Shown piece after piece: positions 795 through 44,451 of a stretch of 46,386 bases of DNA. The stretch comes from a virus (taxonomy: Duplodnaviria > Heunggongvirae > Uroviricota > Caudoviricetes). Location: IMG/VR virus record IMGVR_UViG_2913167280_000002, one strand, 5' to 3'. The translations under genes were made by a program, and so were the position numbers. Below the pieces are notes generated by a model, which was not told the DNA's origin, made no database searches, and saw only the letters and a program-made list of their open reading frames with translations. How positions within the stretch are numbered: the stretch's first letter is position 1; the number at the start of each line of letters is the position of its first letter.

Positions 795-835
795 ATGATT
801 GTGGGTGTCTGGTTGGAAACTGACCAGATATGGAA

Positions 836-917
836 ACAAAAAGCCCGCAGATAAATCTGCGGGCTTCTTGCGACATCCACGGAAAAACCAACAAAAATAT
901 CCATGGGCGCCTCGACA
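836..917 (-). ncRNA. candidate CopA-like countertranscript antisense to the repA leader
   Basis: Minus-strand intrinsic terminator (stem GCCCGCAG/CTGCGGGC at 842-863 followed by a T-run on the minus strand) and minus-strand promoter-like TTGCGT-N16-TATAAT (-35 at 951-946, -10 at 929-924). Boundaries approximate. Confidence 0.4.
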
Positions 918-961
918 ACTCCCATTATACGTTGGTTTTCCGTGGACGCAAGAGCGAACAT

Positions 962-1810
962 ATGGATAGACCAATGCCGTCTCTACGTTCAGCTTACGTT
1001 TGTAATTTGTCGCCGGAGTTCCAGCCTCCAAAGCACCATACGCACAAGCTGCCGCTGGTGTTATCTGATGCTTTACAGCGCATTAATGGGCGTGATCTTA
1101 CGTGTGAGGTTGCGTTCTACGTTAATCAACCGTCAGAGCGGAAGCGCCGGATAAACGAGCATCGTCGTCGGGCGATTAATGCTGTGATCGCTGCGATTTT
1201 GCACCATGTAAACATCATTTCTAAGCGGGTTCTGGCTAGTGCTGAGGCGTTGGCTGATTTTTGCGGCCTGTCTACCGTATCCGAAGCAGGGAACAAGTCT
1301 ATAACGCGCTGTACAAGGGCGTTGTCGCAACTGAAAGCGTTAGGTTTTATTGATTATGAACGTCGCTGGGATCGGGTGAATAAACAGTATTGGCCAGCGA
1401 AAATAGAGATTCGTGATCAACTGCTGGAAACCGTTGGTATTACTGAACAAGCATGGAGACGTGCGGTTAGCCAGAAACTTAATTACTTCAATGCGAAGAA
1501 TAGCGAACGGCTTAAAAAAGCGATAACGGAGGCTGATTATAAGCGTATTGTTATTCAGGAGCAGATGGAGAATGTATGGCGTCAGAGGAAGACGGCCAGA
1601 GAGATAAAGGCAAAACAGAAAGCAGCGGAGAGAGCTGCGCGTCTTGTTCGGGAAAAGGGAGAGGCCGAACTTCGTCATCAAATCACTAGAGAGGTTAGCC
1701 AGGAATTTGCTGATGGCATGTATCCTGGAGCTGACCTTGCATATTTACGATCCCTCGTTGAGCAGCGTTATAACAGGTTAAGAAAGACCTGGAAATCACT
1801 CCAACATTAA
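962..1810 (+). CDS. repA: plasmid replication initiator RepA (IncFII RepA1 family)
   Basis: Central KSITRCTRAL...LGFIDYE region resembles the R100 RepA1 SITRATRAL...LGLITYQ signature from memory. Start at 962 (MDRPMP) chosen because the 830 start would place the antisense RNA structures inside the coding region; 830 remains possible. Confidence 0.8.
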   Translation: MDRPMPSLRSAYVCNLSPEFQPPKHHTHKLPLVLSDALQRINGRDLTCEVAFYVNQPSERKRRINEHRRRAINAVIAAILHHVNIISKRVLASAEALADFCGLSTVSEAGNKSITRCTRALSQLKALGFIDYERRWDRVNKQYWPAKIEIRDQLLETVGITEQAWRRAVSQKLNYFNAKNSERLKKAITEADYKRIVIQEQMENVWRQRKTAREIKAKQKAAERAARLVREKGEAELRHQITREVSQEFADGMYPGADLAYLRSLVEQRYNRLRKTWKSLQH

Positions 1811-3919: not shown

Positions 3920-3934
3920 TCAGAACGAATGATA

Positions 3935-3961
3935 AGCCCCTGTTGCAAAGGGGCTTTTTTG
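3935..3961 (+). terminator. rho-independent terminator
   Basis: Stem GCCCCT/AGGGGC followed by TTTTTT. Confidence 0.6.
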
Positions 3962-3965
3962 TGCT

Positions 3966-4082
3966 TATAGAATTATATAATTATATATTTATATAAAAAG
4001 TGCTTTACAGGTGGGAAAAAATTTCCTATGGTTATACCCGAAACCGAGCGATACCCGCCCTGGTTAAACCGGAGATAACCCG
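3966..4082 (+). promoter_or_regulatory. conserved promoter/leader module, copy A
   Basis: AT-rich octamer array, TTTACA (4004-4009), 17-bp spacer containing the GGAAAAAATTTCC inverted repeat, TATGGT (4027-4032), then a ~45-nt leader ending in GGAG-N8-ATG. Near-identical to copies B and C. Confidence 0.6.
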
Positions 4083-4463
4083 ATGAGCATGATTAAAATC
4101 CGCAAAAACGCTTTCCTTAAAATTCAAACTATCCTGGCTGGTTCTGTTGGCGTGATTTGCCGTTCTTCTTCAAGCCGCATCGATGACGGCTACGATGATG
4201 AGTATCGTGTGTCCTCGTGCGATGAGGCTTTAACCTGGCTGAAGGAGAATCAGGAACGTGCCCAGGTATATCTGGAAACAGAGAACGGCAATCAGATGTT
4301 GCGTATTAGCGGCCGTTATGGATTTGAAACTACATTCATTGCCTATTTTAATCAGGCTTACTTTGACAAGGAGCTGGCCTGGTACACTGATCGCATGATC
4401 AAAAGCGAGCCAGCCCCGATTACACCGCCGAACAATAAACCATTTTTATTCCTCGTTAAGTAA
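4083..4463 (+). CDS. hypothetical protein
   Basis: First gene behind module A; GGAG RBS. Confidence 0.45.
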   Translation: MSMIKIRKNAFLKIQTILAGSVGVICRSSSSRIDDGYDDEYRVSSCDEALTWLKENQERAQVYLETENGNQMLRISGRYGFETTFIAYFNQAYFDKELAWYTDRMIKSEPAPITPPNNKPFLFLVK

Positions 4464-4526
4464 ACACAATACGCAAAGTGTCATTTTGACACTTTGCGAG
4501 TGTTAATATTGTGCGAGGAGAATGCT

Positions 4527-4799
4527 ATGACGGGTTATGAATTGAAATTATGGCGTCGTGGGATGAACTGGACGCAGGAGCGAGCCGCCGAAGAATTTGG
4601 GATATCGTTGGCTACATATAAGCGATATGAGAAGGGGGAGCCGCCGAGGGTCATTGAGATGGCCATTCGCGTTCTGTCGTTTGACGATATGGTGAAGGAT
4701 CTTTCACACCTTGATAAAGACGCGATTCTGTTAAGGCTGCAAACCCTTGTATGGGAAAAGGTTAAAGTGTCGTCAGAATTGGAACAAGGGATCAAATGA
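4527..4799 (+). CDS. small HTH (XRE-like) transcriptional regulator
   Basis: GAGGAG RBS 6 nt upstream; HTH segment MNWTQERAAEEFGISLATYKRYEKG. Confidence 0.5.
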   Translation: MTGYELKLWRRGMNWTQERAAEEFGISLATYKRYEKGEPPRVIEMAIRVLSFDDMVKDLSHLDKDAILLRLQTLVWEKVKVSSELEQGIK

Positions 4800-4873: not shown

Positions 4874-5571
4874 AGTCTGAAATTTAAATCTTGCTTGGTA
4901 GGCTGGATTTAAAAAGACACCTCTTGATTGGGGCGGCTTTCTTGCGTCTAAAGATAATCAAATCTTTTTGCGCCTGCAACCCCTTTTTTACTGGTGCCCA
5001 TTTCAGACTCACGCTCGCGTCGTTGTCTTTGCCACTTCGTTGGGTTCGGTGTTTTTGGGCGAAGTGGCGCGCGGGTATGCGTACAAGGGGAAAGTGTGCT
5101 GACGCAAGCCAGGAACAGCGATCTAAACTAAGTCGAGTCTGAGAAAGGCAGGAGTGCGACAACTCGCCTGTGCTCTATGAGCAGAAGAAGGTATATCAGA
5201 CGACCAATGGCATGATTGTGGGCCACAGGGCGCACACGGCGGCGAAGCATTGGAAACGATGTGGAGCTATCTGGTGGCATGAGTTCCGGTACTCGATCTC
5301 GAGCTTTTTTTGATGCTTTTGAGAAGGGGCCGGAACTCCGGTAAAGGGCACCCTGTATGGGGGGAGGGGGGGTTGTGTCTGAAGGGTGGTTATCGGTTAT
5401 GGTGGAATTATGATGCGTAGAAAAGCGAGTTTGCTGCAAGCTATTGGGTCCATTATTTCTTTGTTTCCGGCAGTTGATCATTTTCGTCATATGGCGACAC
5501 GTTCGAGTATGGGCTTGGCGCGTGACGCTGACGCTATTCGAAAGGATTTTCAGAAAGTCTCTGGCGTTGAT

Positions 5572-5604
5572 AAGAGAGAAAAGAGTAAGGGGCCGTAGCC
5601 CCTT
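5572..5604 (-). terminator. rho-independent terminator after the antirepressor gene
   Basis: Stem AAGGGGC/GCCCCTT; T-rich tract follows on the minus strand. Confidence 0.5.
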
Positions 5605-7397: not shown

Positions 7398-7937
7398 ATG
7401 ATTGAACTGTCAAAAAACTCATGTTTTTCAACCATTCACCTAATGATCATAAAAGAACTTAGGCTAGAAAGAGGTGTGCATCAAGGAGTACTGGCTCAAG
7501 CTGCTGGAAAAACACCAAACGCATGGACAAAGATAGAGAACGGGCAGTCTATATTAACAGTTGACGCCCTTTTTGGTGCTTTCACAGCCCTTAATATTAC
7601 TCCAGTGAATTTCATGTCATTGGTAGAAAATCTTATTCCCGAATTTAACCGTTATGGTTACTTCTTTTTCCCTGGAACAATCAGTCAGGACGAGGATAAC
7701 CTTTTACCTCTGATGCTGCGTTACTTTAATAGCAAGGGGTTTGAAGCATTGAGAAATAGGCCATTAGAAAGAGTTAGCATTAGCTCAATGGGATTCTCAT
7801 TTGGGGGCGGCATCCCTGTTACTCCAACTGCTGTAATGTATTGTTGCGATGAAGCATATAGAAATTGGGTCGATAACGGTGCTGATGTGGATAATCGAGA
7901 TTATCTGGAGTCATCAACAGGTCGTGGACTGTTTTAA
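7398..7937 (+). CDS. HTH (XRE-family) domain protein with C-terminal domain of unknown function
   Basis: N-terminal HTH segment GVLAQAAGKTPNAWTKIENG; 179 aa. Confidence 0.5.
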   Translation: MIELSKNSCFSTIHLMIIKELRLERGVHQGVLAQAAGKTPNAWTKIENGQSILTVDALFGAFTALNITPVNFMSLVENLIPEFNRYGYFFFPGTISQDEDNLLPLMLRYFNSKGFEALRNRPLERVSISSMGFSFGGGIPVTPTAVMYCCDEAYRNWVDNGADVDNRDYLESSTGRGLF

Positions 7938-7982: not shown

Positions 7983-8374
7983 GTGCTGATCGGATTCGCG
8001 GTCCTTTCAGCATTACGTTGTTGTATAAACAACCACGCAAGCACAAGCAGCAAGTTGATTTTACCCAAAAGGTAATAATAGTCCACTATTATGCTTCAAA
8101 AAATTGTGGTTCTTGTTGTGTCTGCAAACTCACAGATTGTGGGTAGGTTACTGATTTTGTGAAAATAAACTGGTTTTTTCGTTTAATTTATTTCCTATTA
8201 CTAATCTTAAAATAATCGTAAAATACCTGTGGACCTTCCCGCCGATTCGCACCCGGGCACCGACTTTAGGGGAGGATTTCCTGTTGCCGTACATGCAAGC
8301 ACAAGCAGCCGTGCTTGCTCTCGCGTTGTTTTCGTCGGTGGGGATGCCGTGAAACGGCCTGTAAGGGCCATACA

Positions 8375-8497
8375 ATGAAAAAATACTGTATGTGTATTTT
8401 TATCGTTGTTACTGGGGCTTTGTTTACGCCACATGGGGAGGGTTGGAAGATTACTGATAACGCTCTGAATGTGACGATAAACATTAGCAGCAAGTAG
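8375..8497 (+). CDS. candidate small hydrophobic peptide (40 aa)
   Basis: MKKYCMCIFIVVTGALFTPHG...; AAGGG about 8 nt upstream; ends just before the terminator at 8503. Speculative. Confidence 0.25.
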   Translation: MKKYCMCIFIVVTGALFTPHGEGWKITDNALNVTINISSK

Positions 8498-8502
8498 CGA
8501 TT

Positions 8503-8747: not shown

Positions 8748-8996
8748 TTACTTCTGGTTGTATTGAGCCTTGAGTAACTCAAAAGACTTTGTCAGCACTT
8801 CTTTCAATGACATATCCATTGAGCTGGCGAACGTTTTGTACTCGCGTTTAAATTCAGGGTCGACGTTAAACGCCATTTGTGCCCCACCTGATTTGGTTCT
8901 GGTTGGCGTTTCAGTCGGGTCGAAAACCTGCGGTTGTTCGATCGATGGCGGTACGCCTTTGCTGTTCTTCTTTGGTGGTTTTGATGGTGCGGCCAT
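8748..8996 (-). CDS. ribbon-helix-helix centromere-binding protein (ParG-like)
   Basis: 82 aa, basic flexible N-terminus then RHH-like MAFNVDPEFKREYKTFAS...; AGAGGGGA RBS; directly downstream of parA. Confidence 0.55.
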   Translation of the reverse strand: MAAPSKPPKKNSKGVPPSIEQPQVFDPTETPTRTKSGGAQMAFNVDPEFKREYKTFASSMDMSLKEVLTKSFELLKAQYNQK

Positions 8997-9039
8997 GTGT
9001 ATCCCCTCTTATATAAATCTATAAAACTATAATTATATA

Positions 9040-9693
9040 TTACGCGGCAGTAGTCAGAGCCTCAAGCTGGTTGATAATCCCCTGAATAACGTCGTCTGCC
9101 TTTTTGCGTGGCGCAACGTATGAGCACTCAATGAGGCTTAAGCCCTTATCCTGAGCTTTGCTCAGAGCTGGCTTGTGGGGAATGTACTTATCGACAACAA
9201 AGTATGGCGTATTAGCCAGGTACTCTTGGGCTTCGATGTAGTCAGCTTCGTTTTCAGCCGCGCCGGAAAACACCATGCAAATTTTCTTGATTGGTACGCC
9301 CTTTTTAACGATGCCGTGAGCAGTGTTAACGGTGGTTTCAAGGTCATCGGTAGAGAATCGGGTTGGCAAAATAACCATATCCAGAAATTCAGATAGCTTC
9401 GGTACTGATTCAGATGCGTAGGCACCGCCATCAACGATAACCAGGTCGTATACTTCTGATTCGATGATTTTCTGGACTTGTGATGGCGTGCCGCACGGCT
9501 GCGCCGCGATTGCAGGTTCGATATTGTTGGCCATTCTGCGTTGTACCCAACGCGTTACCGTTCCGTTAAGCACATCCATATCGATCAGGCATACATTCCA
9601 GCCAGCCTTTGCATAAGCAACTGCTAAAGCACGGGCAATGGTTGATTTGGTTACGCCGCCTTTTCCGTTGAAAATACCTACAGATATAGTCAT
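9040..9693 (-). CDS. parA: partition ATPase ParA (small type Ib)
   Basis: Deviant Walker A GKGGVTKST; about 217 aa; GGAG RBS before the second in-frame Met. Confidence 0.8.
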   Translation of the reverse strand: MTISVGIFNGKGGVTKSTIARALAVAYAKAGWNVCLIDMDVLNGTVTRWVQRRMANNIEPAIAAQPCGTPSQVQKIIESEVYDLVIVDGGAYASESVPKLSEFLDMVILPTRFSTDDLETTVNTAHGIVKKGVPIKKICMVFSGAAENEADYIEAQEYLANTPYFVVDKYIPHKPALSKAQDKGLSLIECSYVAPRKKADDVIQGIINQLEALTTAA

Positions 9694-9714
9694 TTGTCGA
9701 GACTCCATGTGTTT

Positions 9715-9825
9715 GATTATATAATTCTATAAATCTATATTTATAGAATGAGGTAAGCATAACCAACTTTTGAGCGGATGAAAAGCACTTTATATAATTA
9801 TATAAATCTATAATATTTAAGCGGG
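9715..9825. repeat. AT-rich octamer arrays upstream of parA (candidate centromere and promoter)
   Basis: Two clusters of TTATATAA/TTATAGAT-type units. Confidence 0.4.
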
Positions 9826-10308: not shown

Positions 10309-10965
10309 TCATAACCAGTTGACAACACTAACTACGCGGCCCAGAACTTTATAACGCTTAAATTCCTCGTTATTCAGATGCTTAGTGTTCATTTCAGCAT
10401 CCCTTTCGGTTGACAGCATAACAGCATTGTCACCCGGTATGACTCTACAGTGCCTCAAAACAACCAGGCCATTTCTGTCTTCAAGGGCATAGATCCCCTC
10501 ATGAATCTCTGTATCGTCTGTATCAATCAGGACTTGGGAGCCAGGGGATATTGTTGGTGACATTAACTCATCGTTGCTCTGGAGAACTGACAGAGACGAT
10601 GGGTTGATGTTCTTGCTTCGTAGAATCTCCTGTTCTATCGCCAGCACTGGCTTTTCTCCGGCGTGCGATGCTATGTCATTTTTTATAGCTACAAGCCCAG
10701 GAATAACAGGAGCGTTAGTATTCTGGGGTGGGAACGGGTTATCTGTTAAGCACGCGATATAAGGCGCTGATGCTTTCAGGGCGTGAGCGATTTTCTTGAT
10801 GGCAGGTATAGATGGTTGTCTTAATCCGGCCTCATAGTTCTGCAAGGTGCTTAAGCCTATTCCAGTGACTTGCTGGAGATCTCCGGCAGTCATGCCGGAT
10901 TGTTTCCGTAGAGTCTGAATGCGCAGACCTATTTCTTTCTTGATGTTCTCGTCGTTGCTTTTCAT
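10309..10965 (-). CDS. CI-like prophage repressor (HTH plus LexA/S24-like C-terminal domain)
   Basis: N-terminal HTH (LQQVTGIGLSTLQNYEAG) and C-terminal S24-like region; divergent from the early operon. Confidence 0.75.
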   Translation of the reverse strand: MKSNDENIKKEIGLRIQTLRKQSGMTAGDLQQVTGIGLSTLQNYEAGLRQPSIPAIKKIAHALKASAPYIACLTDNPFPPQNTNAPVIPGLVAIKNDIASHAGEKPVLAIEQEILRSKNINPSSLSVLQSNDELMSPTISPGSQVLIDTDDTEIHEGIYALEDRNGLVVLRHCRVIPGDNAVMLSTERDAEMNTKHLNNEEFKRYKVLGRVVSVVNWL

Positions 10966-11002
10966 GTCTCATCAATCGTGAATGGTGGGTTATTTATACA
11001 TT

Positions 11003-11121
11003 ACCACATTTAGTGGTTTTCACGCGGTAAGACGAGATGTGGACCACAAATAGAAGGCTATTTTTTGTTTCGCCCATTGAAAAACTCACGATATGTGGTT
11101 TTAATACCACATATCGTGGTT
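11003..11121. promoter_or_regulatory. immunity-switch operator cluster
   Basis: ACCACATTTAGTGGT (11003-11017), CTCACGATATGTGGTT (11085-11100) and ACCACATATCGTGGTT (11106-11121) in the divergent intergenic region; rightward promoter-like TTGAAA-N17-TTAATA overlaps the last two. Confidence 0.5.
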
Positions 11122-11138
11122 TAACTGGAGTTCGTTAA

Positions 11139-13542: not shown

Positions 13543-13658
13543 TCTATAAATATATAATTATATATTTATATAAAAAGTGCTTTACAGGTAGGAAAAAATT
13601 TCCTAAGGTTATACCCGAAACCGAGCGATACCCGCCCTGGTTAAACCGGAGAAATCTG
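13543..13658 (+). promoter_or_regulatory. conserved promoter/leader module, copy B
   Basis: Near-identical to copy A, with differences in the -10 (TAAGGT), the spacer and the last 7 nt. Coordinates approximate to within 1 nt. Confidence 0.6.
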
Positions 13659-14726
13659 ATGAATAAACAAGTAATTATTTCTGACTGGATCAACAACCCT
13701 AACAGCCTGTTAAGCACTGATACTGGCTACCTATTACGCCATGTTAATGGTCGTATGGTCAAAAGCGATGAGCACGAAACCTTTTTCTTTGTTGAAGACG
13801 ATGGGCGCATCTATGAGGATGGTTACTCTTATGAAGCCCAAACTGGTTGTATCCCTGCGGAGCTGGTGGACGTAACAGAAGATCTGCGCAAAGCATGGCT
13901 TGAACAGCAGCAGCGCGGAGATGATTACGTAAACACCTATCAGGAACGCCAGAACGCGCGTCTTGCCCGATATATTGCTCGTGCAGAAAAAGCCAGAAAA
14001 GAAGGTGCGGTAGCGCATAAGCGAGCGCATGACCTGTTGGATGTGATCCCGTTAGGCCAGCCGATTTTAGTTGACCATTATAGCGCGAAAGGCCATCGCC
14101 GCCGTTTGTCTAAAGCTGATGCGTTATTCAGAAAAGCGTTTGTTGAATGCGAAAGTAAAGCATCACACTACGAGAGCAAAGCCGCAGGTGTTGGTCGTAA
14201 TGGAATTTCGTCTGATGATCCTGATGCGCTATTTAAGTTGCTTCGTAAGCTGCAAGGCTGCATGAAGTCACACGTCAAAATGAAGGCCGCAAATAAGGCC
14301 ATTCGCAAATACAAAAAAGACCAATTACAGCAGCTTTCTGCATTAATCGATCTCAGGTTTACAGAAAGCGAAGCCAAAGAGTTACTGGCCGGAGATTTCT
14401 GTGGGCGCATCGGATTCCCTTCATACGCACTGAGCAACAATAACGCCGAAATCAAACGACTACAGAGCCGTATTAAGGAGCTTGAATCGGTCAAGTCTGT
14501 AACAGGAGCACAGCGCGAAGAATACGACGGCTTTTCTATGGAGATAGATCCAGAGGATAACCGCATCCTGTTTTATTTCCCTGGCAAACCAGAGGCAAAC
14601 ATTCGTTCGCTGCTTAAATCACGCGCCTTTAAGTGGAGTCCAACCCGTAATGCATGGGTTCGCAAGATTACTCCAAACGCCCTGGCTGATGCCCGATATC
14701 TGAAAGAATCGCTATTGAAAGCCTGA
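13659..14726 (+). CDS. hypothetical protein (355 aa)
   Basis: First gene behind module B; GGAG RBS. Confidence 0.5.
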   Translation: MNKQVIISDWINNPNSLLSTDTGYLLRHVNGRMVKSDEHETFFFVEDDGRIYEDGYSYEAQTGCIPAELVDVTEDLRKAWLEQQQRGDDYVNTYQERQNARLARYIARAEKARKEGAVAHKRAHDLLDVIPLGQPILVDHYSAKGHRRRLSKADALFRKAFVECESKASHYESKAAGVGRNGISSDDPDALFKLLRKLQGCMKSHVKMKAANKAIRKYKKDQLQQLSALIDLRFTESEAKELLAGDFCGRIGFPSYALSNNNAEIKRLQSRIKELESVKSVTGAQREEYDGFSMEIDPEDNRILFYFPGKPEANIRSLLKSRAFKWSPTRNAWVRKITPNALADARYLKESLLKA

Positions 14727-14803
14727 CAGTAAGCCTACGGCGGGATGTCTCCCGCCGTATATAGAATTATATATTTATATAAATGTATAAGGACGCCTCG
14801 ACA

Positions 14804-15085
14804 ATGAAACGCAAAATTATTAACCCCCAAGATGTGATTAATTTCCTGACCGATCACCCATGTTCAAAAGTGGACGTAATCGCGGAGCACATTGGTGTGT
14901 CGCAGAACTCTATGCGTTGCAGACTGAGAAGCATGGTTGCCGAAGGACAGATAACAACCAGGAAAATAAATGGTTGCCTGTACTACTCCGCTAAACCGGA
15001 ATTGCCATTTGGCATGAATCCTAACTCCATGTTGTTTAACACCTTATTAGCCAAAGTTAAGCCGTTGAGAGGGGCTGTGGCATGA
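14804..15085 (+). CDS. small putative winged-helix DNA-binding protein
   Basis: Preceded by an AT-rich octamer array; start at second in-frame Met. Confidence 0.35.
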   Translation: MKRKIINPQDVINFLTDHPCSKVDVIAEHIGVSQNSMRCRLRSMVAEGQITTRKINGCLYYSAKPELPFGMNPNSMLFNTLLAKVKPLRGAVA

Positions 15086-19643: not shown

Positions 19644-19767
19644 TACCGCCTGTGATTGGGTAAAGCCCATCTACCTGACTGATCACGACATCGATGTTAT
19701 GGACCGCCAGACAAAGAAAGATATTCTGGCTCATAACAGGGCATGGGAAATCAACTGCCGAAAGTAA
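19558..19767 (+). CDS. o-spanin lipoprotein (Rz1-like), overlapping the i-spanin gene in another frame
   Basis: Signal peptide with lipobox LIASC; starts inside the i-spanin gene in a different frame. Confidence 0.45.
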   Translation: MYSRVLTIWLMTMLIASCGSRGSVPVVVDTACDWVKPIYLTDHDIDVMDRQTKKDILAHNRAWEINCRK

Positions 19768-19936
19768 TATATATTTCTATAATTATATAAATATATAGTT
19801 ACAACATTCTATGCGCTTTTCTCATGGGTGCACGCATCAACCATGTTTGTCTGATATGCCGCCGCGCCCAAAAATCCTGAATTTATTGGCTGGGATTTTC
19901 GTGCGCGGCGCCACACCAGACAAACAAATCAAATAT

Positions 19937-20012
19937 GGCCCCTTAGCTCAGTGGTTAGAGCAGGCGACTCATAATCGCACGGTCATCGGTTCAAGTCCGG
20001 TAGGGGCCACCA
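19937..20012 (+). tRNA. tRNA with CAU anticodon (Met or lysidine-modified Ile)
   Basis: 76 nt; 7-bp acceptor stem, D-arm GCTC/GAGC, anticodon loop CTCATAA, T-loop TTCAAGT, encoded CCA; one G-A mismatch at the top of the anticodon stem. Confidence 0.75.
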
Positions 20013-20315: not shown

Positions 20316-20903
20316 ATGGAGGCAATTGCATTGTTTAATCTGATTTATGCAGATCCCCCCTGGGAATACAAAGACAAGTGTAAGGATGGGAATCGTGGCG
20401 CTGGTTTTAAGTATCCAACGATGAAAGCTGAGGAGATTGCTCGTATTCCTGTCTGGCAGCTTGCTAATCCTGAATCGTGTTTGTTGGCCATGTGGTGGGT
20501 TCCGACTCAGCCAGAAGAAGCGTTGCTGGTGGTGAAAGCATGGGGATTCAGGCTTATGACCATGAAGGGCTTCACATGGAACAAATGTGGTAGCCGACAA
20601 CCAGATAAGCTGGTGATGGGAATGGGGCATATGACTCGTGCAAACAGTGAAGATTGCTTGTTTGCAGTGAAAGGCAAACTACCGACACGTCTTGATGCGG
20701 GGATCATTCAGTCGTTTACATCGCCTCGTCTGGAGCATTCTCGGAAGCCTGATGTGGTCCGTGACAAGCTGGTAAAGCTGTTAGGCGATGTTCCTCGTAT
20801 TGAGCTGTTTGCTCGCGGTGATTTACCTGATGGCTGGCATGGCTGGGGCAACCAGTGCAACGGAGGTATCCAGTTGCATGATGCTCTCTGGCAAGTGTCA
20901 TAG
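20316..20903 (+). CDS. MT-A70-family DNA N6-adenine methyltransferase
   Basis: DPPW catalytic motif in LIYADPPWEY near the N-terminus; 195 aa. Confidence 0.7.
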   Translation: MEAIALFNLIYADPPWEYKDKCKDGNRGAGFKYPTMKAEEIARIPVWQLANPESCLLAMWWVPTQPEEALLVVKAWGFRLMTMKGFTWNKCGSRQPDKLVMGMGHMTRANSEDCLFAVKGKLPTRLDAGIIQSFTSPRLEHSRKPDVVRDKLVKLLGDVPRIELFARGDLPDGWHGWGNQCNGGIQLHDALWQVS

Positions 20904-21015
20904 AATTATATAATTATAGATTTATATAAAAAGTGCTTTACAGGTGGGAAAAAATTTCCTATGGTTATACCCGAAACCGAGCGATACCCGCCCTGGTTAA
21001 ACCGGAGATAACCCG
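20899..21015 (+). promoter_or_regulatory. conserved promoter/leader module, copy C
   Basis: Identical to copy A from the -35 region to the ATG, one substitution in the AT-rich box; TTTACA at 20937-20942. Confidence 0.6.
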
Positions 21016-21285
21016 ATGAAAGTACAAGACCGTGAAGTAGTAAAAAACCTCCTGCAATACCTGACCTCAAAAAACCTGACGGGCAGCGTTGAGTTCCGTG
21101 AAGCGTTAAAACATTTCAACGTCACTACGGTTTATCGTTGGGAAAACAAACATTCTGAAAGACCGTATGTGGTGGATGTTTTTGCGCCTGATATTGAGTG
21201 CGGTTTTGAGCGTCATTCGTTCAAGGAGAAACATTCCGCTGATGTTTTTTGTGAGGTTGTATGTGCGGCAGGAGATGATGAGTGA
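21016..21285 (+). CDS. hypothetical protein
   Basis: First gene behind module C. Confidence 0.4.
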   Translation: MKVQDREVVKNLLQYLTSKNLTGSVEFREALKHFNVTTVYRWENKHSERPYVVDVFAPDIECGFERHSFKEKHSADVFCEVVCAAGDDE

Positions 21286-23346: not shown

Positions 23347-23970
23347 ATGACAAAACAACTTAATGTGGTTTCTTTACCACTTTCTGTGTTGATTGGTTAT
23401 GAAAAGAACGCTCGCACACACTCCGTGGAGCAGGTAGATCAGATTGTTGCCAGCATACAGGAGTACGGATGGACTAATCCGATCCTGATAGACGAGAACA
23501 ACGTTGTAATTGCTGGTCATGGTCGAATTGCTGCGGCCACTCAGTTGGGGATGGATGATGTTCCCTGCATTGTTCTGGCTGGGCTAACGGAGAATCAGAA
23601 GAAGGCATATCGTCTGGCCGACAACCGTATTCCGCTGAATGCTGGTTGGGATGAAGAGCTGTTAAGCGCGGAGCTTGCAGATCTTGCGGCCGATGATTTT
23701 GCTCTGGACTCAATTGGTTTTACTCAGCGCGAACTGGATAACTTATTGAGTGCGGCGGTCTACGATGACACAGAGGGTATGGATATCCCATTTGAGAAGG
23801 ATGAGGCCAAATCAGGCGTAAAAGTTCAGTACCTGTCATTTGGAGGTCATAAAATCCCGGCAACGGATGAGGAAGCGGATCGTTTTGACTGCGCGGTGTC
23901 TCGTTATGTTGATGATAATGGCAGCTATATCGGATTTGTATCCGCATTGCTGGCTGGGGAGGTGTGCTGA
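23347..23970 (+). CDS. ParB-like nuclease-domain protein
   Basis: ParB N-terminal-domain pattern ...NPILIDENNVVIAGHGRIAAA...; paralogous to the 26636 protein. Confidence 0.6.
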   Translation: MTKQLNVVSLPLSVLIGYEKNARTHSVEQVDQIVASIQEYGWTNPILIDENNVVIAGHGRIAAATQLGMDDVPCIVLAGLTENQKKAYRLADNRIPLNAGWDEELLSAELADLAADDFALDSIGFTQRELDNLLSAAVYDDTEGMDIPFEKDEAKSGVKVQYLSFGGHKIPATDEEADRFDCAVSRYVDDNGSYIGFVSALLAGEVC

Positions 23971-25343
23971 TGCTTCACCTGAATTACGACATAACGCACC
24001 TACGCGGCGCGGAATATAACCCGCGTTTTATCGGTGAGGATGATCTTGCGAGGCTGGAGGAAAGCGTCAGGGAGCTGGGGCTTGTGAAGCCATTGATAGT
24101 GCGCGGCGATTTGCTGGTGGCGGGACACCAAAGGACGAAGGCGCTACGTAAGTTGGGAATAACGCGTGCTGCGGTGTATGTGTTGCCCTGTGAAACGACG
24201 GTATACGACGAAGTTCGGTTTAACCAACTGCATAACGGAACGGATTTTGATAGCGGAGATGAGCGTTGCAGGGTGTCCGGTCTGGAAGATAAGCATGGTT
24301 TTGTTCAGGTATCGGCAAGCCAGATCTCAGGCAATATGCGCGCGAAAATGGCATATGTTCGAAAGAACATAGCGGAACTGGTTATCAAGTATGGTCCGTG
24401 GGGTGGTTGTGTTGCTACTCAGTCTGGCGAGGTTATTCACTGTGCTCAGTATGCATTAGCAGCGAAGATGACGCGCACACCGCTAACGGTGTTTGTGATC
24501 CCTGATGTTGAGAAGGAAAAATACCAAAGTTATCTGAATAAAACTTATGGTGTATTTGAGTATTCTCATCTGGAGAAAACAACATACATCCAGACGTATG
24601 CGCAGCTTATGCGGTTGCGTAATGGTGGCAGCCTGAAATCAAACCTGTATGAGTCGTTGATCCTCCCGATCATTGCCAAGACGCCAAGAGGAATTGATTT
24701 TGGTTCGGGGCAGGGAGACTACGCGCGAATGCTCAGGGCAAAGGGGTATAACCTGCATGATCTTGAGCTTTTCCGCCGTAAGGGCGCAGGAAACACTCTG
24801 GATAGGGCTGCAACAAACCGAATGATTGATACGCTGGTGGACGACTTAAAAACGCGAGGGCGTTACGACTACGTGATTTGCGATAGCGTTTTGAACTCGG
24901 TCGATAGTGTCGAGGCTGAATGGTCCGTTCTGACGGTTCTGAAAGGCCTGTGTAAAGCTGGTGGGTCAATATTCTTTTCTGGCCGTAGCCGTGGAGAGCT
25001 GGAGAGTGTGCTTAAACGAACGCAAGCTGCTAGCTCTATAAGTCGGCTTTATTTTATTGACCATAACGGTTTTTCTGCTTTGTACCGGAAGGGACACTGG
25101 TTTTATCAGAAGTTTCATTCTGATGAGGAAGTGAAGCAATTGTGCCGTGAGCATAGCTTCAGAATAAAGCGGTCGGTATTTAACGGTAAGAGCTGGTATT
25201 TGCACGTTATTAACGATGATTCTCTTCGCTGGGAGAGTCTGGAGAAAGCTGTTCGTTTTGAGTTTGAGTTGCCGTTGCCTGGTGGTTCAACAATCGGACG
25301 ATCTGATGATGTGTTGGCGGCTTTCCGGCCGTTGATTAAGTAG
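23970..25343 (+). CDS. fusion protein: ParB-like N-terminal domain plus class I SAM-dependent methyltransferase domain
   Basis: N-terminal ParB-like block (LVAGHQRTKALRKLG); C-terminal GIDFGSGQGDY motif I and YDYVICDSVLNSV motif II; no DPPY-type amino-methyltransferase motif seen. Confidence 0.55.
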   Translation: MLHLNYDITHLRGAEYNPRFIGEDDLARLEESVRELGLVKPLIVRGDLLVAGHQRTKALRKLGITRAAVYVLPCETTVYDEVRFNQLHNGTDFDSGDERCRVSGLEDKHGFVQVSASQISGNMRAKMAYVRKNIAELVIKYGPWGGCVATQSGEVIHCAQYALAAKMTRTPLTVFVIPDVEKEKYQSYLNKTYGVFEYSHLEKTTYIQTYAQLMRLRNGGSLKSNLYESLILPIIAKTPRGIDFGSGQGDYARMLRAKGYNLHDLELFRRKGAGNTLDRAATNRMIDTLVDDLKTRGRYDYVICDSVLNSVDSVEAEWSVLTVLKGLCKAGGSIFFSGRSRGELESVLKRTQAASSISRLYFIDHNGFSALYRKGHWFYQKFHSDEEVKQLCREHSFRIKRSVFNGKSWYLHVINDDSLRWESLEKAVRFEFELPLPGGSTIGRSDDVLAAFRPLIK

Positions 25344-26079: not shown

Positions 26080-26635
26080 TCATCGTGTGGTTGATGGTGT
26101 TGTTATGCAGGGTGTATTCACTGTGTTCTGTAGCGTCGCTCGCTGGCTGTCTGTGGGTGAGCACGAGCATCGTTTCATCGTCCGGCAGAATTGGGTCCTT
26201 CTGGCCAAAAGCGTTGGATGCGGGTCATTCGAACCCCGATGTTCGGCTAGCTAAACGTGAAAAAAGTTAGGTTAAAAGTTGCGGTAAAAGAAATTTACTC
26301 ATCTCATTGAAAAATATCGGGAAAACGTGATTTTTTGCTGTATTTGTGCTGGTAAAAAGAAAGTAGAAAATTTTCTTTTAGATCATCAAGATACGCGCAG
26401 ATCTTTAACCAATGTGATGTTGTTCTGATAAAAATCGTTATAAATCATGCAAATACATCCAATCTTTTAACCAAAACACCATCTCAAGATCCTTTTCACT
26501 TATAAAAACTTAATAAAATCAGATAATTATGCTGGTTTGTGTGATTTTTTATGAGTAAAAAGATCGTCATTTTCTCTTTTAGTATCAATAAGTTAAACAG
26601 TTTTCTTTAACCTGTTGTGTTATGGCGGTTAAAAA

Positions 26636-27226
26636 ATGGCTCTAAAAATCGAATATTTACCAGTCGGTAAGCTGCTCAGATACGCCAAAAATTCACGGAC
26701 TCATTCAGATGAGCAGGTTGAACAGTTGGTGAACAGTATCCGTGAGTTCGGTTTCACTAATCCTGTGCTGATCGATGAAAAGAATGAACTGATTGCGGGG
26801 CATGGTCGGCTTGCAGCAGCCGAAATTCTGGAAATGGATAAAGTTCCGGCGATTCGGTTGAGTAACCTTTCTGAAAAACAGAAGAAGGCTTACAGGATTG
26901 CAGATAACAAGCTGGCCTTAAATGCTGGCTGGGATATGCAGCTTCTGGCCGAAGAAGTCAAAGAGTTAATGGATGATGATTTTGATATTGATCTGCTTGG
27001 GTTTAATGATGCAGAACTTGACGAAATGTTAAGCGATGAACAGCCGCAGGAAGAAGACGATAATTCTTCCCCTGTTGTTCAAATTAAGTACCTGGCTATT
27101 GATAAAGAACGTATTCCCGCGACGGATATGGAAATTGCATTGTTGCTGGATGTTTATCGTCAGTACCACGACGCGCATGAAACGCATGAGGGATTTGTTC
27201 AGTATCTTGCTAATGGTTGCAAGTAA
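26636..27226 (+). CDS. ParB-like nuclease-domain protein (second paralog)
   Basis: Same domain pattern as the 23347 protein; its stop overlaps the terminase small subunit start. Confidence 0.6.
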   Translation: MALKIEYLPVGKLLRYAKNSRTHSDEQVEQLVNSIREFGFTNPVLIDEKNELIAGHGRLAAAEILEMDKVPAIRLSNLSEKQKKAYRIADNKLALNAGWDMQLLAEEVKELMDDDFDIDLLGFNDAELDEMLSDEQPQEEDDNSSPVVQIKYLAIDKERIPATDMEIALLLDVYRQYHDAHETHEGFVQYLANGCK

Positions 27227-37931: not shown

Positions 37932-40724
37932 ATGGCCAGCAATAAGAACTTTAAGCTGGCTTTTGAAATTGGCGGCAAAGTTGCCGCCTCTCTCCCCAAA
38001 AGTTTTACTACAGCTAATCAGGCTGTTGCTAAATTAAATGCCGAGCTTGCTGGATTAACGAAAGAACATGGGGAAATTCAAAAGCTACAATCTGTAAAAG
38101 TAAAGGTTGGACAGACTGCCCTCGAATATCATAAAGCTGCCGCTCGCGTTGAAGAGTTACAGAAGCAAATAAAAAACACGGCCAATCCAACCAGAGCGAT
38201 GCTTCGTGACTTTGAGAAGGCAAAAACACATTCATCGAATTTACGAGCATCACTACGTTCTCAGCGTGAAGAACTGGCCGCTTTAAAGTCTGCCTATCAG
38301 GGAGCTGATACATCTGCCAGAGCTTTGGCCTCAAGAGAGAAAGAGCTTAAAGCCAGCATTGATCGTAATCGTGAGGCTCAGGCCCGTAGCGTTGAGCAGG
38401 TTAACCGCTACAGAACGGCTTTGGCTTTAGCCAGAGCAAATGTTCAGCAAGTGAAAAAACAGCAGGAGGAACTTAACCGGGCATTAGAAAAACAACGTAT
38501 TGATAAAATTAACAGCTATAAAAATGCGTTGGCTGAAGCACGGAAAAATGTTCTTGCAGTAAAACGTGCTCAGGAGGAGTTAAACCGCGCGTTGGAAAGG
38601 CAGCGTGAATTGAAGCGAGAGCATCTTGGTGAGGCAAAGAGTCAACTTGTAAGGTCAGGATTACAAACTGGTGCTGTAGCTGCTGGTGCATTTGCTGCTG
38701 CTAACAATGCAGCAAATTTTAATCGTGAAAACAAAATGATTGGTCTTACGGCAGATATGAAGCCGGAAGAAGTTCAGGCGATGGGGCAGGCGATGCTTGT
38801 TACCGGAACGGCTACCAACCAGTTTGCATCTGATATTCAGGCCGCTCAGGGGTTTCTCGTCGCTGCTGGGCAGGATTATAAAGAGGCTCAGGCGAATCTA
38901 CTAACTATTGGACGAACAGCTACAGCTACTGGCTCTGATATCCTCGATGTCTCGAAAGCATCATTTACATTAAGTGACTCATTGAAGATTGATCCATCTC
39001 AAATGAAGTCTGCAATGGGGATTCTGGTTCAGGCAGGGAAAGAGGGAAACTTTGAATTTAAAGATATGGCCAAAAATCTTCCTGTGCTTGGTGCTCAGTT
39101 CCAGGCATTAAAAATGGGAGGTAAAGAAGCCGCCGCGACGATGGGGGCAGCTTTGCAGATAGCTCGCAAAGGTGCTGCAACTTCGGATGAGGCTGCTAAT
39201 AATATGAACAACTTTTTGGCGAAAATACTTTCCCCTGAAACACTAAAAAAAGCAAAGAAAAATTTCGGTGTAGATTTATATAAAATTGTCACAACAGCGC
39301 AGAAAAAAGGGAAGAATCCATTCGAAGCTGCAATGCATTCTGTCATGAAAATGACTAAGAACGGAGATCAGAAGTTACTTGGTGAGCTATTTGGCGATAT
39401 GCAGGTTCAGAACTTTGTTCGTCCGATGATTCAAAACTGGAAGGAATACCAGAGAATCAAAGCAACATCTCTTGGGGCTGGAAGTGCTGTTATTGACCGC
39501 GATTTTGCCAACATAACGAAAGACAATGCGGAGCGATTGAAACAATTACGTATTCAGGCTAGCAATGCATCATTAAGTTTTGGTCAGGCCTTGCAACCTG
39601 CTTTGAATGCCGCGCTTAGTGTTTTGGTTCCGCTGATTACAAAAATTAGTGAATTTGTAGCTAACAACCCCAATTTTGTGTCTCAGATTGTGATGGCGGC
39701 AGGTGCGTTTCTAACCATGAAAAGTGTGGTTATAGCGTGTAGGGTAGCTATGCTGGCTTTATCTGTAGCGACAAAGCTAACACCCTTCGGGTGGATTCAG
39801 ATGGCTATATCTGCGCTGGTTGCCGCAGGAATATTGCTCTATCAGAATTGGGATAAGATCAGAGATTATGCTGTCAGAGTTTGGCCTTCTGTTAAGGAAT
39901 ATACAGTTAAATCATTTGAGGCTATAAAAAACTTTATCTTAAACTTTGATCTCAATGGATGGATTATATCTATGTTTGGTAAAACATGGGATTATCTTTC
40001 CAACATAAACTGGAGTTCGGCAGGAGTAAGAATTTACAGTACATTAATTAGTGTTTTTAAATGGATGTCTCCGCTTCCGTTCTTAATTAAAGCATTTAAA
40101 CTTACAACAAATTACCTTTCTGGTATTAACTGGAGCGAAACAGGAAAGAAGATCATAGATACACTGGTATCTGTTTTTATGCGTTTTTCACCAGTTGGAC
40201 TCTTTATAAGAGCATTCCAATCTGTAACGGCTTATTTATCTGGAATAAACTGGAGTGAGTCAGGTGCAAAAATAATTGAGACGTTAATCACTGGGATAAA
40301 ATCAAAAGCAAATGCTTTAATTAATGAAGTGAAAGGCGTTTTTTCTTCTGTACGTGAGTATTTACCGTTCTCTGACGCGAAAAAAGGTCCATTCTCACAG
40401 CTAACAAAGTCAGGTGGTGCAATAATGACTACTCTGGCATCAGGCGTTAGCAGGAATAACAGCTTACAGAATGCAATAGCAACCAAGTTCGGGCAATCAA
40501 ATTTATCACCTCACGGGATATCTGCCGCCGGGACTTCTGGACCTCGCCAGAACGTTAACGCTGTGACTGGTGGAATAACCTATTCACCTGTAATCAATCT
40601 TCCGGCTGGTTCACCAAAGGAAACTGAGGCGGCAGCTAAAAGAGCATTAGATGCGGGATATTCTGATTTTGAGAAGAAATTGAGTGCTCATATGTTCCAA
40701 CAACGGAGATTAAGTTTTGGATGA
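37932..40724 (+). CDS. tail tape measure protein
   Basis: 930 aa, coiled-coil-rich N-terminal third, hydrophobic segments mid-protein. Confidence 0.8.
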   Translation: MASNKNFKLAFEIGGKVAASLPKSFTTANQAVAKLNAELAGLTKEHGEIQKLQSVKVKVGQTALEYHKAAARVEELQKQIKNTANPTRAMLRDFEKAKTHSSNLRASLRSQREELAALKSAYQGADTSARALASREKELKASIDRNREAQARSVEQVNRYRTALALARANVQQVKKQQEELNRALEKQRIDKINSYKNALAEARKNVLAVKRAQEELNRALERQRELKREHLGEAKSQLVRSGLQTGAVAAGAFAAANNAANFNRENKMIGLTADMKPEEVQAMGQAMLVTGTATNQFASDIQAAQGFLVAAGQDYKEAQANLLTIGRTATATGSDILDVSKASFTLSDSLKIDPSQMKSAMGILVQAGKEGNFEFKDMAKNLPVLGAQFQALKMGGKEAAATMGAALQIARKGAATSDEAANNMNNFLAKILSPETLKKAKKNFGVDLYKIVTTAQKKGKNPFEAAMHSVMKMTKNGDQKLLGELFGDMQVQNFVRPMIQNWKEYQRIKATSLGAGSAVIDRDFANITKDNAERLKQLRIQASNASLSFGQALQPALNAALSVLVPLITKISEFVANNPNFVSQIVMAAGAFLTMKSVVIACRVAMLALSVATKLTPFGWIQMAISALVAAGILLYQNWDKIRDYAVRVWPSVKEYTVKSFEAIKNFILNFDLNGWIISMFGKTWDYLSNINWSSAGVRIYSTLISVFKWMSPLPFLIKAFKLTTNYLSGINWSETGKKIIDTLVSVFMRFSPVGLFIRAFQSVTAYLSGINWSESGAKIIETLITGIKSKANALINEVKGVFSSVREYLPFSDAKKGPFSQLTKSGGAIMTTLASGVSRNNSLQNAIATKFGQSNLSPHGISAAGTSGPRQNVNAVTGGITYSPVINLPAGSPKETEAAAKRALDAGYSDFEKKLSAHMFQQRRLSFG

Positions 40725-43330: not shown

Positions 43331-44451
43331 CGTTGCCGCGTGGTGGTTTGCCAGATATTACTTTCGCAGATTCTAACCCGACTGATATAACAACTCGTTC
43401 AATCAGGGCTTTTGAGAGTATAACAGGTGAAACATTAGCACCTGCTGATCCACGTAGATTATTCATCTTATCATTGTGTGAGATTATTATACAGCAAAGA
43501 AAAGCTATCGATTTTTCTGCAAAACAAAACCTTCTTACATATGGTGAAGGTGAATATCTCGACCATATAGGCTATCTGACGGATACGCCTAGGTTGGAAG
43601 CTCAATCTGCCTTGACTACATTTGAGTTTAATCTGTCAACAAAATTATCGGGGATATATACAATACCTTCTGGCACTCAAGTTTCAACTGGAAATGGTGT
43701 TATTTTCCAAACAGATGTTTTGTTGGAAATACCTGCTGGGAAAACAGTTGGTACAGTCTCAGGATATGCTGTTATACCTGGTTTATCGGGGAATGGCTTT
43801 TTACCAGGGCAAATAAATGAGTTGGTGACTCCGTTGCCGTATGTTTCCAGCGTAAGGAATCTAACAACATCTAATTCTGGTGCTGATACAGAGTCAGATG
43901 ATAATTATGCTGAAAGAATAAAACTGTCGCCGGAAAAACTGTCTACAGCAGGGCCGGAGGATTCTTATAAATATTGGACAAGAACAGCCAATCAGAATAT
44001 AAAAGATGTGAATGTATATACACCATCGCCCGGAACTGTAGAAATCCGTTCTTTGTTAGAGAACGGAGATATACCTTCTGATGAACTATTGGAGCAGATA
44101 AATAGCGTTCTCTCTGCAACTAATATTCGACCATTCACAGATAAAGTTCTTGTTAAGAAACCAGAGAGCATTGAATACGATATAATAATTAAATACTGGA
44201 TTAACTCATCGGACAAAAACAGAACAACATTAATTCAAAGTGAGGTTGAGAAAGCTATTGATGAGTATAAACAATGGCAACGTTCGGTTATGGGAAGAGA
44301 TATAAATCCAGATGAAATTATTCAACGTTTAAAAAATGCCGGGGCTAAAAGATTAGAAATATCAAGTCCTGTATTTACTGTGGTTGGAGAGACGCAGGTC
44401 GCCAGAGAGAGAAATATAAATTGCCAGTATGCGGGGTTAGAGGATGGCTGA
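43327..44451 (+). CDS. baseplate J-like protein
   Basis: 374 aa in the baseplate cluster. Confidence 0.6.
   Translation: MTLPRGGLPDITFADSNPTDITTRSIRAFESITGETLAPADPRRLFILSLCEIIIQQRKAIDFSAKQNLLTYGEGEYLDHIGYLTDTPRLEAQSALTTFEFNLSTKLSGIYTIPSGTQVSTGNGVIFQTDVLLEIPAGKTVGTVSGYAVIPGLSGNGFLPGQINELVTPLPYVSSVRNLTTSNSGADTESDDNYAERIKLSPEKLSTAGPEDSYKYWTRTANQNIKDVNVYTPSPGTVEIRSLLENGDIPSDELLEQINSVLSATNIRPFTDKVLVKKPESIEYDIIIKYWINSSDKNRTTLIQSEVEKAIDEYKQWQRSVMGRDINPDEIIQRLKNAGAKRLEISSPVFTVVGETQVARERNINCQYAGLEDG

Follow-up and report, generated by a model that had tools for sequence, protein, structure and literature searches.

What reads a short AT-rich repeat that recurs between the genes of a tailed phage? The DNA analysed here is a 46,386-nt stretch of a virus of the Caudoviricetes (IMG/VR record IMGVR_UViG_2913167280_000002), hereafter the window. 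The initial annotation had placed arrays of a unit (A)TTATA(T/G)A at eight or more operon boundaries, always in intergenic or promoter positions, and had suggested a shared DNA-binding factor rather than chance AT-richness. All eight of the arrays it listed are present, and there are exactly eight in the window (A1 to A8; Table 1). Each consists of four contiguous, in-phase 8-bp units with the consensus T(A/C)TA(T/G)A(A/T)(A/T), or TMTAKAWW, which is the originally described unit in another register. For example, the units of A1 are TATAGAAT, TATATAAT, TATATATT and TATATAAA. Across 31 units, positions 3, 4 and 6 (T, A and A) never vary; in A4, the fourth unit is degenerate in the window and intact (CATATAAG) in relatives. 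The 6-bp core is TATATA, TCTATA or the inverse TATAGA. Because this core is quasi-palindromic, a match on one strand has a counterpart on the other, shifted by 2 nt, and units are found in either orientation; A3, for example, holds TCTATA and TATAGA boxes, direct and inverted. All eight arrays are indeed non-coding, overlapping coding sequence by only 0–5 nt. The description “operon boundaries” is roughly right, but two of the arrays, A3 and A4, lie on either side of one promoter, and A2 is internal to the par operon.

Table 1. Positions of the arrays, promoter cassettes and genes in the window
Feature	Position	Strand	Context
A1	3966-3997		After terminator 3934-3956 and directly before the -35 of cassette promoter 1 (promoter 4004-4032)
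A2	9010-9041		Within the par operon, after the parA stop codon and before the SD of the RHH gene
A3	9718-9749		Directly after the parA -10, covering ~+1 to +32 of the predicted transcript
A4	9791-9822		Immediately upstream of the parA -35; array-AAGTGCTTTnCA junction same as in the three cassettes
A5	13543-13574		Upstream of cassette promoter 2
A6	14760-14791		After a hairpin, ~13 nt before the start of the MarR-like wHTH gene
A7	19768-19799		After the lysis genes, with tRNA-Met ~140 nt downstream
A8	20899-20930		At the MT-A70 methylase stop codon; cassette promoter 3 follows
Cassette copy 1	3967-4086	+	Ahead of gene 4083-4463 (126 aa, phrog_8090)
Cassette copy 2	13544-13663	+	89% identical to copy 1; ahead of gene 13659-14726 (DUF3560, primase-like C-terminus)
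Cassette copy 3	20900-21019	+	99% identical to copy 1; ahead of gene 21016-21285 (89 aa, phrog_6143)
IncFII-type RepA	830-1810	+	Plasmid-replication context
Small HTH proteins	4527-4799, 7398-7937
82-aa RHH gene	8748-8996	-	Candidate centromere-binding protein and array reader; “hypothetical protein” in RefSeq
parA	9040-9708	-	Deviant-Walker-A ATPase (GKGGVTKST), type Ib, 217-222 aa
Predicted parA core promoter	9756-9784	-	-35 TTTTCA (9784-9779), 17-nt spacer, -10 TATGCT (9761-9756); sequence reading
CI-like repressor	10309-10965	-
MarR-like wHTH gene	14804-15085
tRNA-Met (CAT)	19937-20012		Between the lysis genes and the MT-A70 methylase gene

Could AT-rich DNA have produced such arrays by chance? 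Three tandem copies of TMTAKAWW, with up to two mismatches allowed, give 30 overlapping matches on the two strands, all at the eight loci, against 0.00 in 100 dinucleotide shuffles. A separate count found 14–15 arrays of at least three units, compared with none in 200 whole-window shuffles. Intergenic AT content does not account for the density either: the pooled intergenic sequence (6.8 kb, 57.5% AT) contains 7 plus-strand arrays, and none appeared in 500 shuffles. Even dinucleotide shuffling of each array's own 40 bp, which is 80–95% AT, yielded at least three in-phase units in just 0–3 of 2000 trials. Strict detection by period-8 self-similarity misses most of the arrays. OR545055, a complete relative, has the same eight arrays and no others. 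A chance origin of the arrays is excluded.

What kind of element carries these arrays? The Yersinia phages vB_YpM_39/41/44, whose genomes are circular and 49 kb long, are 97–99% identical to the window, and the structural module of the window is shared with E. coli myoviruses. It encodes lysis genes, an MT-A70 methylase, a contractile-tail structural module, a HigB/HigA pair and an Ant/Rha-type protein. The same par region occurs among the complete plasmids of PLSDB in 59 circular, non-mobilizable plasmids of 47–50 kb, almost all from E. coli. Because the window encodes RepA, because no integrase was found among its genes, and because its par region is found on these plasmids, the element is, judged by gene content, a phage-plasmid. 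The element type is absent from the ten defined phage-plasmid types of PMC12977533. The “pseudolysogenic” Yersinia phage HQ103, at 32 kb, is unrelated.

An element that replicates as a plasmid with an IncFII-type RepA needs partition, and three of the eight arrays bracket or sit inside a par operon, two of them sandwiching its core promoter. The order on the minus strand is the terminator hairpin of the upstream gene, A4, AAGTGCTTTTCA (-35), a 17-nt spacer, TATGCT (-10), A3, GGAG, the parA ATG, the parA stop codon, A2, an SD and the gene for an 82-aa protein, which begins 44 nt past the parA stop and belongs to the same operon. The true start of parA is likely the ATG at 9693, which is preceded by the GGAG SD. 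ParA falls within the ~200–230 aa of type Ib systems and has no N-terminal HTH domain; it matches Pfam CbiA/ParA/MipZ and the PHROG “ParA-like partition protein”, and ParF of TP228 (4dzz) is among its nearest solved relatives in the PDB. The partner gene next to parA is likewise a type Ib trait, and the same arrangement of parA and a small gene is found in the relatives L012–L016, L018, L021 and L022. The operator/centromere of type Ib systems classically lies at the par promoter, and on the sequence reading the par operon arrays occupy precisely this place. A type Ia ParB/parS system, like that of N15 SopB, in which a large ParA is followed by a large HTH ParB with a ParB_N domain and parS is a 16-bp palindrome, does not fit, since ParA is small, the ParB_N-domain proteins of the window are encoded more than 13 kb from parA, with one of them fused to a methyltransferase, and the sites are tandem 8-mers rather than single palindromes.

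Several other proteins of the element were considered as readers of the arrays. The CI-like repressor is rejected because its operators differ (ACCACA-N-GTGGT) and its own divergent region contains these other palindromes and no arrays. Between the repressor gene and the rightward genes (11139 on) there are three to four copies of an ACCACA-N5-6-GTGGT palindrome (11002-11122), which are probably immunity operators, and a 16+16 nt perfect-type inverted repeat at 11087-11118. Arrays serving as RepA iterons are also rejected: none adjoins repA, and the nearest is ~2 kb off. The ParB_N-domain proteins are unlikely readers. There are three of these ParB_N/Srx-domain proteins (23347-25343 and 26636-27226), whose genes immediately precede the terminase genes and have no relation to the parA operon; the one with the fused methyltransferase domain has 459 aa, and a packaging or DNA-modification role is possible.

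Is the 82-aa protein a plausible reader? A disordered, basic Pro/Lys-rich tail (residues 1–39) is followed by a strand-helix-helix domain (40–80), in which QMAFNV, with alternating hydrophobics, precedes PEFKREYKTFASSM, a D-M-S turn and LKEVLTKSFELLKAQ. Its close homologues (79–96% identity) are all annotated as “hypothetical”. An exhaustive HMM search collected 102 cluster representatives, nearly all of 70–90 aa, and their alignment conserves an N-terminal MA..P.K...KG.PP and LNFKV..EF.REFK..AA..MSM..LL...FE. When 82 members of this family were scanned singly against Pfam, RHH_10 matched 33/82, Antitox_RHH 21/82, 56B_RHH 8/82 and ParG (PF09274; best E 2.7e-4) 5/82; the window protein itself had no Pfam match in the same scan. 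The two best PDB matches of the family profile are both RHH proteins, 2kel (E 0.11) and ParG 1p94 (E 0.16), with the strand-helix-helix in register. An AlphaFold model built on a deep alignment places two helices after an extended segment in residues 41–80 (pLDDT 89–94) and leaves the tail disordered; the β-ribbon of RHH proteins forms only in the dimer. Taken singly, each of these lines is weak or indirect; together they point to a ParG-like RHH protein whose N-terminal tail is flexible, so that by its predicted features the 82-aa protein resembles the partner protein of a type Ib system.

How do the arrays compare with the sites of known systems? The geometry of four TATATAWW units is that of the metbox, a palindromic 8-bp site bound by an RHH dimer of MetJ, which occurs in two to five tandem units with 8-bp centre-to-centre spacing and cooperative contacts between dimers. 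In contrast to the protein proposed here, MetJ is a metabolic repressor of chromosomal origin, depends on a co-repressor and has neither a ParA partner nor an N-terminal tail. A second likeness is dispersal. As here, N15, RK2 and pMF1 have partition sites scattered over the replicon in place of one centromere, and N15, too, is a plasmid-prophage. N15 and RK2 use a large HTH ParB (type Ia) with single 16-bp-type palindromes, whereas the window has an RHH protein and tandem 8-bp arrays; the pMF1 unit is an 8-bp quasi-palindrome, AGATGTCT. PMC3235114 names N15, RK2 (KorB), pSM19035 and pMF1 as having dispersed partition sites.

The ParF/ParG system of TP228 (parH, OF) shares the box geometry. ParG binds a 4-bp ACTC box with a 4-bp AT spacer, one dimer per box, with boxes direct and inverted, and its sites serve as operator and centromere (PMC3130281). 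The 8-bp period and mixed orientation are the same as in the arrays. In TP228, however, the box is ACTC and 20 boxes lie in one locus, rather than TATATA-like units in eight dispersed arrays of four; TP228 has no known regulon outside parFG, and the similarity of the window protein to ParG is marginal. The δ/ω system of pSM19035 (Streptococcus pyogenes) provides a further parallel: a small Walker ParA is paired with an RHH protein of ~70–80 aa whose N-terminal tail is flexible, the sites consist of short repeats in uninterrupted succession, direct and inverted, and several arrays overlap par and non-par promoters. Specifically, six parS arrays overlap three promoters, and at least four contiguous repeats are needed for full ParA activation (PMC9499535). 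The window likewise has several arrays of that length at par and non-par promoters: all eight have four units, and four abut a -35. The constant four-unit length fits the ω threshold of four, by analogy. The differences are also clear. The ω repeat is a 7-bp WATCACW in arrays of 7–10, as opposed to an 8-bp TMTAKAWW in a fixed four; pSM19035 is a Firmicute plasmid that controls copy control and toxin-antitoxin genes, whereas the window is an enterobacterial phage-plasmid with arrays at early-region operons. The units are not WATCACW heptads, there is no detectable sequence similarity to ω, and no ω-family Pfam match was found among the 25 most frequent families of the scan described above. The system proposed here works like ω and ParG but is not an ω-family member.

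What do the arrays outside the par operon accompany? A1, A5 and A8 form the 5' parts of a 120-nt cassette present in three copies. Each cassette comprises an array, AAAGTGC, TTTACA-17-TATGGT and an identical ~50-nt leader with an SD up to the ATG, and the predicted parA promoter is a homologue of the cassette promoters. A promoter-consensus scan as a whole was not enriched over shuffles (20 vs 25), and the promoter calls therefore rest on the repeated cassette and the homology to the parA promoter. The cassette 5'UTR has no significant RNA structure (z = -1.2). Of the other dispersed arrays, A6 leaves no space for a promoter before the MarR-like gene, and the sequence from A7 to tRNA-Met shows no convincing sigma70 promoter. 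In the phage collection, the cassette is confined to the three Yersinia phages, which also carry the close RHH gene; this co-occurrence is uninformative, though consistent, because the three genomes are near-identical. A GGAAA-AAA-TTTCC palindrome lies in the 17-nt spacers of the cassettes (4010-4026, 13587-13603 and 20943-20959), is absent from the parA promoter spacer, and could be the site of a second regulator acting on the cassettes only.

The location of these cassette arrays raises the possibility that no dedicated protein is involved, and that the arrays act as UP elements for the α-subunit, as flexible or curved TA-step DNA, or as sites for H-NS, IHF or Fis. Indeed, A1, A4, A5 and A8 lie at ~-37 to -68 of sigma70-like promoters, matching the UP-element zone (~-40 to -60) exactly, and the high AT content of the arrays comes with many TA steps. 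This position does not fit A2, A3, A6 and A7, none of which is upstream of a promoter. Moreover, a strict 8-bp phase and a four-unit length are needless for UP or H-NS function, and composition does not produce them. Relatives from the same host family have switched all of their sites together to another unit, and L018 has a GC-containing box; this lineage-specific switching argues for a specific reader. Action without a dedicated element protein is accordingly rated improbable. A UP-like array that is masked by an RHH protein would be compatible with the partition-protein reading; the two roles are not exclusive.

Relatives provide further indications of a specific reader. In close relatives, substitutions are limited to the degenerate unit positions (1–2, 5 and 7–8), and in L010 and L011 the in-phase arrays persist while their flanks drop to 73–86% identity. 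In L009 (IMGVR_UViG_2657245570_000011, ~8334-8500), A2 has five units, including an exact duplicate of the 8-bp TCTATAAA; arrays can therefore grow unit by unit. More diverged are five syntenic relatives, L012–L016, whose RHH proteins are 40–46% and backbone proteins 26–67% identical to those of the window. No complete records of these types were found in PLSDB, and they were judged on loci of 13–20 kb. All five keep the layout of terminator, array, core promoter, array, SD, parA and RHH gene, and each has six to nine dispersed intergenic arrays of its own unit type: TCTTTAAn and the inverse TAAAGA in L012 and L016, and TTAAATAA/TATTTAAA-like units in L014 and L015. An array directly follows the MT-A70 gene in the window (A8), L016 and L015, each time with the element's own unit.

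To quantify this covariation, 12-mers from the par-promoter arrays of each element were counted outside the par region; 8-mers were swamped by AT-rich background in the cross-matrix, and 11- and 12-mers were used instead. The window's 12-mers occur 32 times outside par in the window and 0 times across all five relatives, those of L012 occur 28 times in L012, 35 times in L016 and twice in the window, and those of L014 and L015 are concentrated in L014 and L015. The exception is L013, whose units are more degenerate. In this element (IMGVR_UViG_3300025711_000016; 9226-9257, 5565-5600 and 4118-4147), the par-promoter words are window-like and the other arrays WTAAATRT-like; its β-strand reads M-H-F-N-V. 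Diverged relatives thus keep the 8-bp phase, the unit number and part of the positions, yet switch their units together, as expected of a single element-encoded reader. Together with the shuffles, this concerted switch supports the shared DNA-binding factor that had first been suggested for the arrays.

More distant elements extend the pattern. In L018, L021 and Erwinia phage LS-2018a, a member of the 82-aa protein's family directly follows a small ParA, and 8-bp-spaced TAGCGA/TCGCTA boxes, direct and inverted, lie at the parA promoter. The L018 box (TTCGCTAA) contains GC, and AT-richness is therefore not an essential property of the sites. This box is dispersed in L018 (24 matches vs 5.5 expected, with spacings of 8, 16 and 24) and is not dispersed genome-wide in LS-2018a (27 vs 24 expected); dispersal is therefore common but lineage-specific, not universal.

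Does the unit type follow the candidate reader? In the predicted β-strand x-[L/M]-X1-F-X2-V-D, the L/M, F and V positions are invariably hydrophobic and X1 and X2 are variable, so that X1 and X2 would face outward, toward the DNA. They are A/N with TMTAKA in the window clade (strand A-F-N-V), N/N with TCTTTA/TTTAAA in four elements (N-F-N-V), N/K with TAGCGA in three independent elements (N-F-K-V), and H/N in the ambiguous L013. Across these sequences, the unit type appears to track the DNA-facing strand residues. In light of what is generally known of RHH–DNA complexes, a lysine accompanying the G/C-containing box would be chemically sensible.

A different reader encoded by the element would also switch all sites at once. 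The arrays could be operators of the MarR-like protein or of one of the small HTH proteins: A6 directly precedes the MarR-like gene, several HTH proteins are encoded nearby, and since all of the relatives' proteins have diverged, concerted switching does not by itself single out the reader. However, all relatives examined have arrays on both sides of the parA promoter, among them the distant L018, L021 and L022, which share little beyond ParA and the RHH protein, and tblastn detected no MarR homologue in L012–L016. RHH proteins such as ParG typically bind tandem 8-bp boxes of mixed orientation, whereas HTH and wHTH dimers usually use palindromes of 14–20 bp, like the CI-like operators in the window. 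A reader of this kind is unlikely.

We therefore favour the 82-aa RHH protein. That the arrays are sites for some protein encoded by the element is very probable given the sequence comparisons, and that this protein is the RHH partner of ParA, acting in partition and regulation, is probable. The eight arrays would be the cognate sites of the element's own type Ib partition system, and we infer binding, stoichiometry, direction of regulation and centromere activity as follows. One RHH dimer would bind each quasi-palindromic 6-bp core; with core centres 8 bp apart, a 32-bp array would be covered by four dimers binding cooperatively. At the par operon, occupied A4 and A3 would occlude the UP/-35 zone and the start site of the parA promoter, leading to autoregulation, and A4, A3 and A2 would together form the partition complex, on which the basic, conserved N-terminal tails of the coating dimers would stimulate ParA. 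The same protein would bind the five dispersed arrays. Since three of these abut the -35 of an identical cassette promoter, it may also be a multi-promoter regulator, which at the cassettes would most likely repress by filling the UP-element/-35 zone. All eight arrays could serve as additional centromere-like loading sites.

A further extension is tentative, and we consider it possible rather than probable. The RHH protein might provide a second, partition-coupled layer of prophage control, with expression tied to copy number and segregation state, and the switching of box and strand might generate specificity types that let relatives coexist. If so, three identically wired operons, the par operon, the MarR-like regulator and the tRNA/methylase region would all be under partition-coupled control, and the specificity types would be analogous to immunity or incompatibility groups.

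What are the implications of assigning the arrays to a partition system? The sequence evidence suggests an uncharacterised family of ParA-linked RHH proteins with a TATA-like 8-bp unit and fixed four-unit arrays at eight sites of a phage-plasmid. First, this ~49-kb type of phage-plasmid is common, being represented by the 59 PLSDB plasmids and by infectious Yersinia phages, and the assignment would give it a centromere and a candidate global regulator. Second, it defines a family of ~100 sequence clusters of small ParA-linked proteins. Third, the pairs A-F-N-V/TATATA, N-F-N-V/TCTTTA and N-F-K-V/TAGCGA would form a natural specificity series, which may be useful for studying or re-engineering DNA recognition by RHH proteins and plasmid incompatibility. 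Fourth, an enterobacterial phage-plasmid with a type Ib system would join the known cases of two phenomena: centromere-like sites that are dispersed, as known for N15, and a partition protein that doubles as a regulator of several promoters, as known for pSM19035.

One more explanation is that the arrays and cassettes are mainly recombination substrates, module-boundary sequences for mosaic exchange, or a spreading selfish mini-repeat. The near-identity of the three cassettes suggests gene conversion, and one of the breakpoints that separate the window from OR545055 is found ~20 nt past cassette 3 (21039). Other breakpoints (4524-4536, 15448, 17968 and 26234-26451) are away from arrays, and recombination explains neither the 8-bp period within the arrays, nor their conserved position around the parA core promoter, nor the link to the β-strand residues. 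This explanation is very improbable, and recombination at the arrays would be at most a side effect. At the cassette 3 breakpoint, window 21039-21281 corresponds to 44085-44088 of the Yersinia phage OR545055 (L001), and the cassette-driven gene differs between the two, so the cassette may serve as a recombination junction. Elsewhere, the window segment 15448-17968 is replaced in OR545055. The first genes behind the three cassettes are unrelated to one another, though the 120-nt block is 89–99% identical, which points to gene conversion or to strong selection that keeps the expression signals identical.

Two other sets of repeats in the window are separate from the arrays. A 132-nt unit is repeated three times in tandem (100/89/67% identity) at 45631-46026, at the start of the tail-fibre region, and on the closed circular map these repeats adjoin a Hin-type invertase (94-648). 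They likely represent a repeated fibre domain or an invertible host-range segment. The gene for the 930-aa tape-measure protein (37932-40724) contains three 45-nt repeats at an exact spacing of 120 nt (39989-40273), indicating, from the sequence, a 40-aa internal periodicity of the protein.
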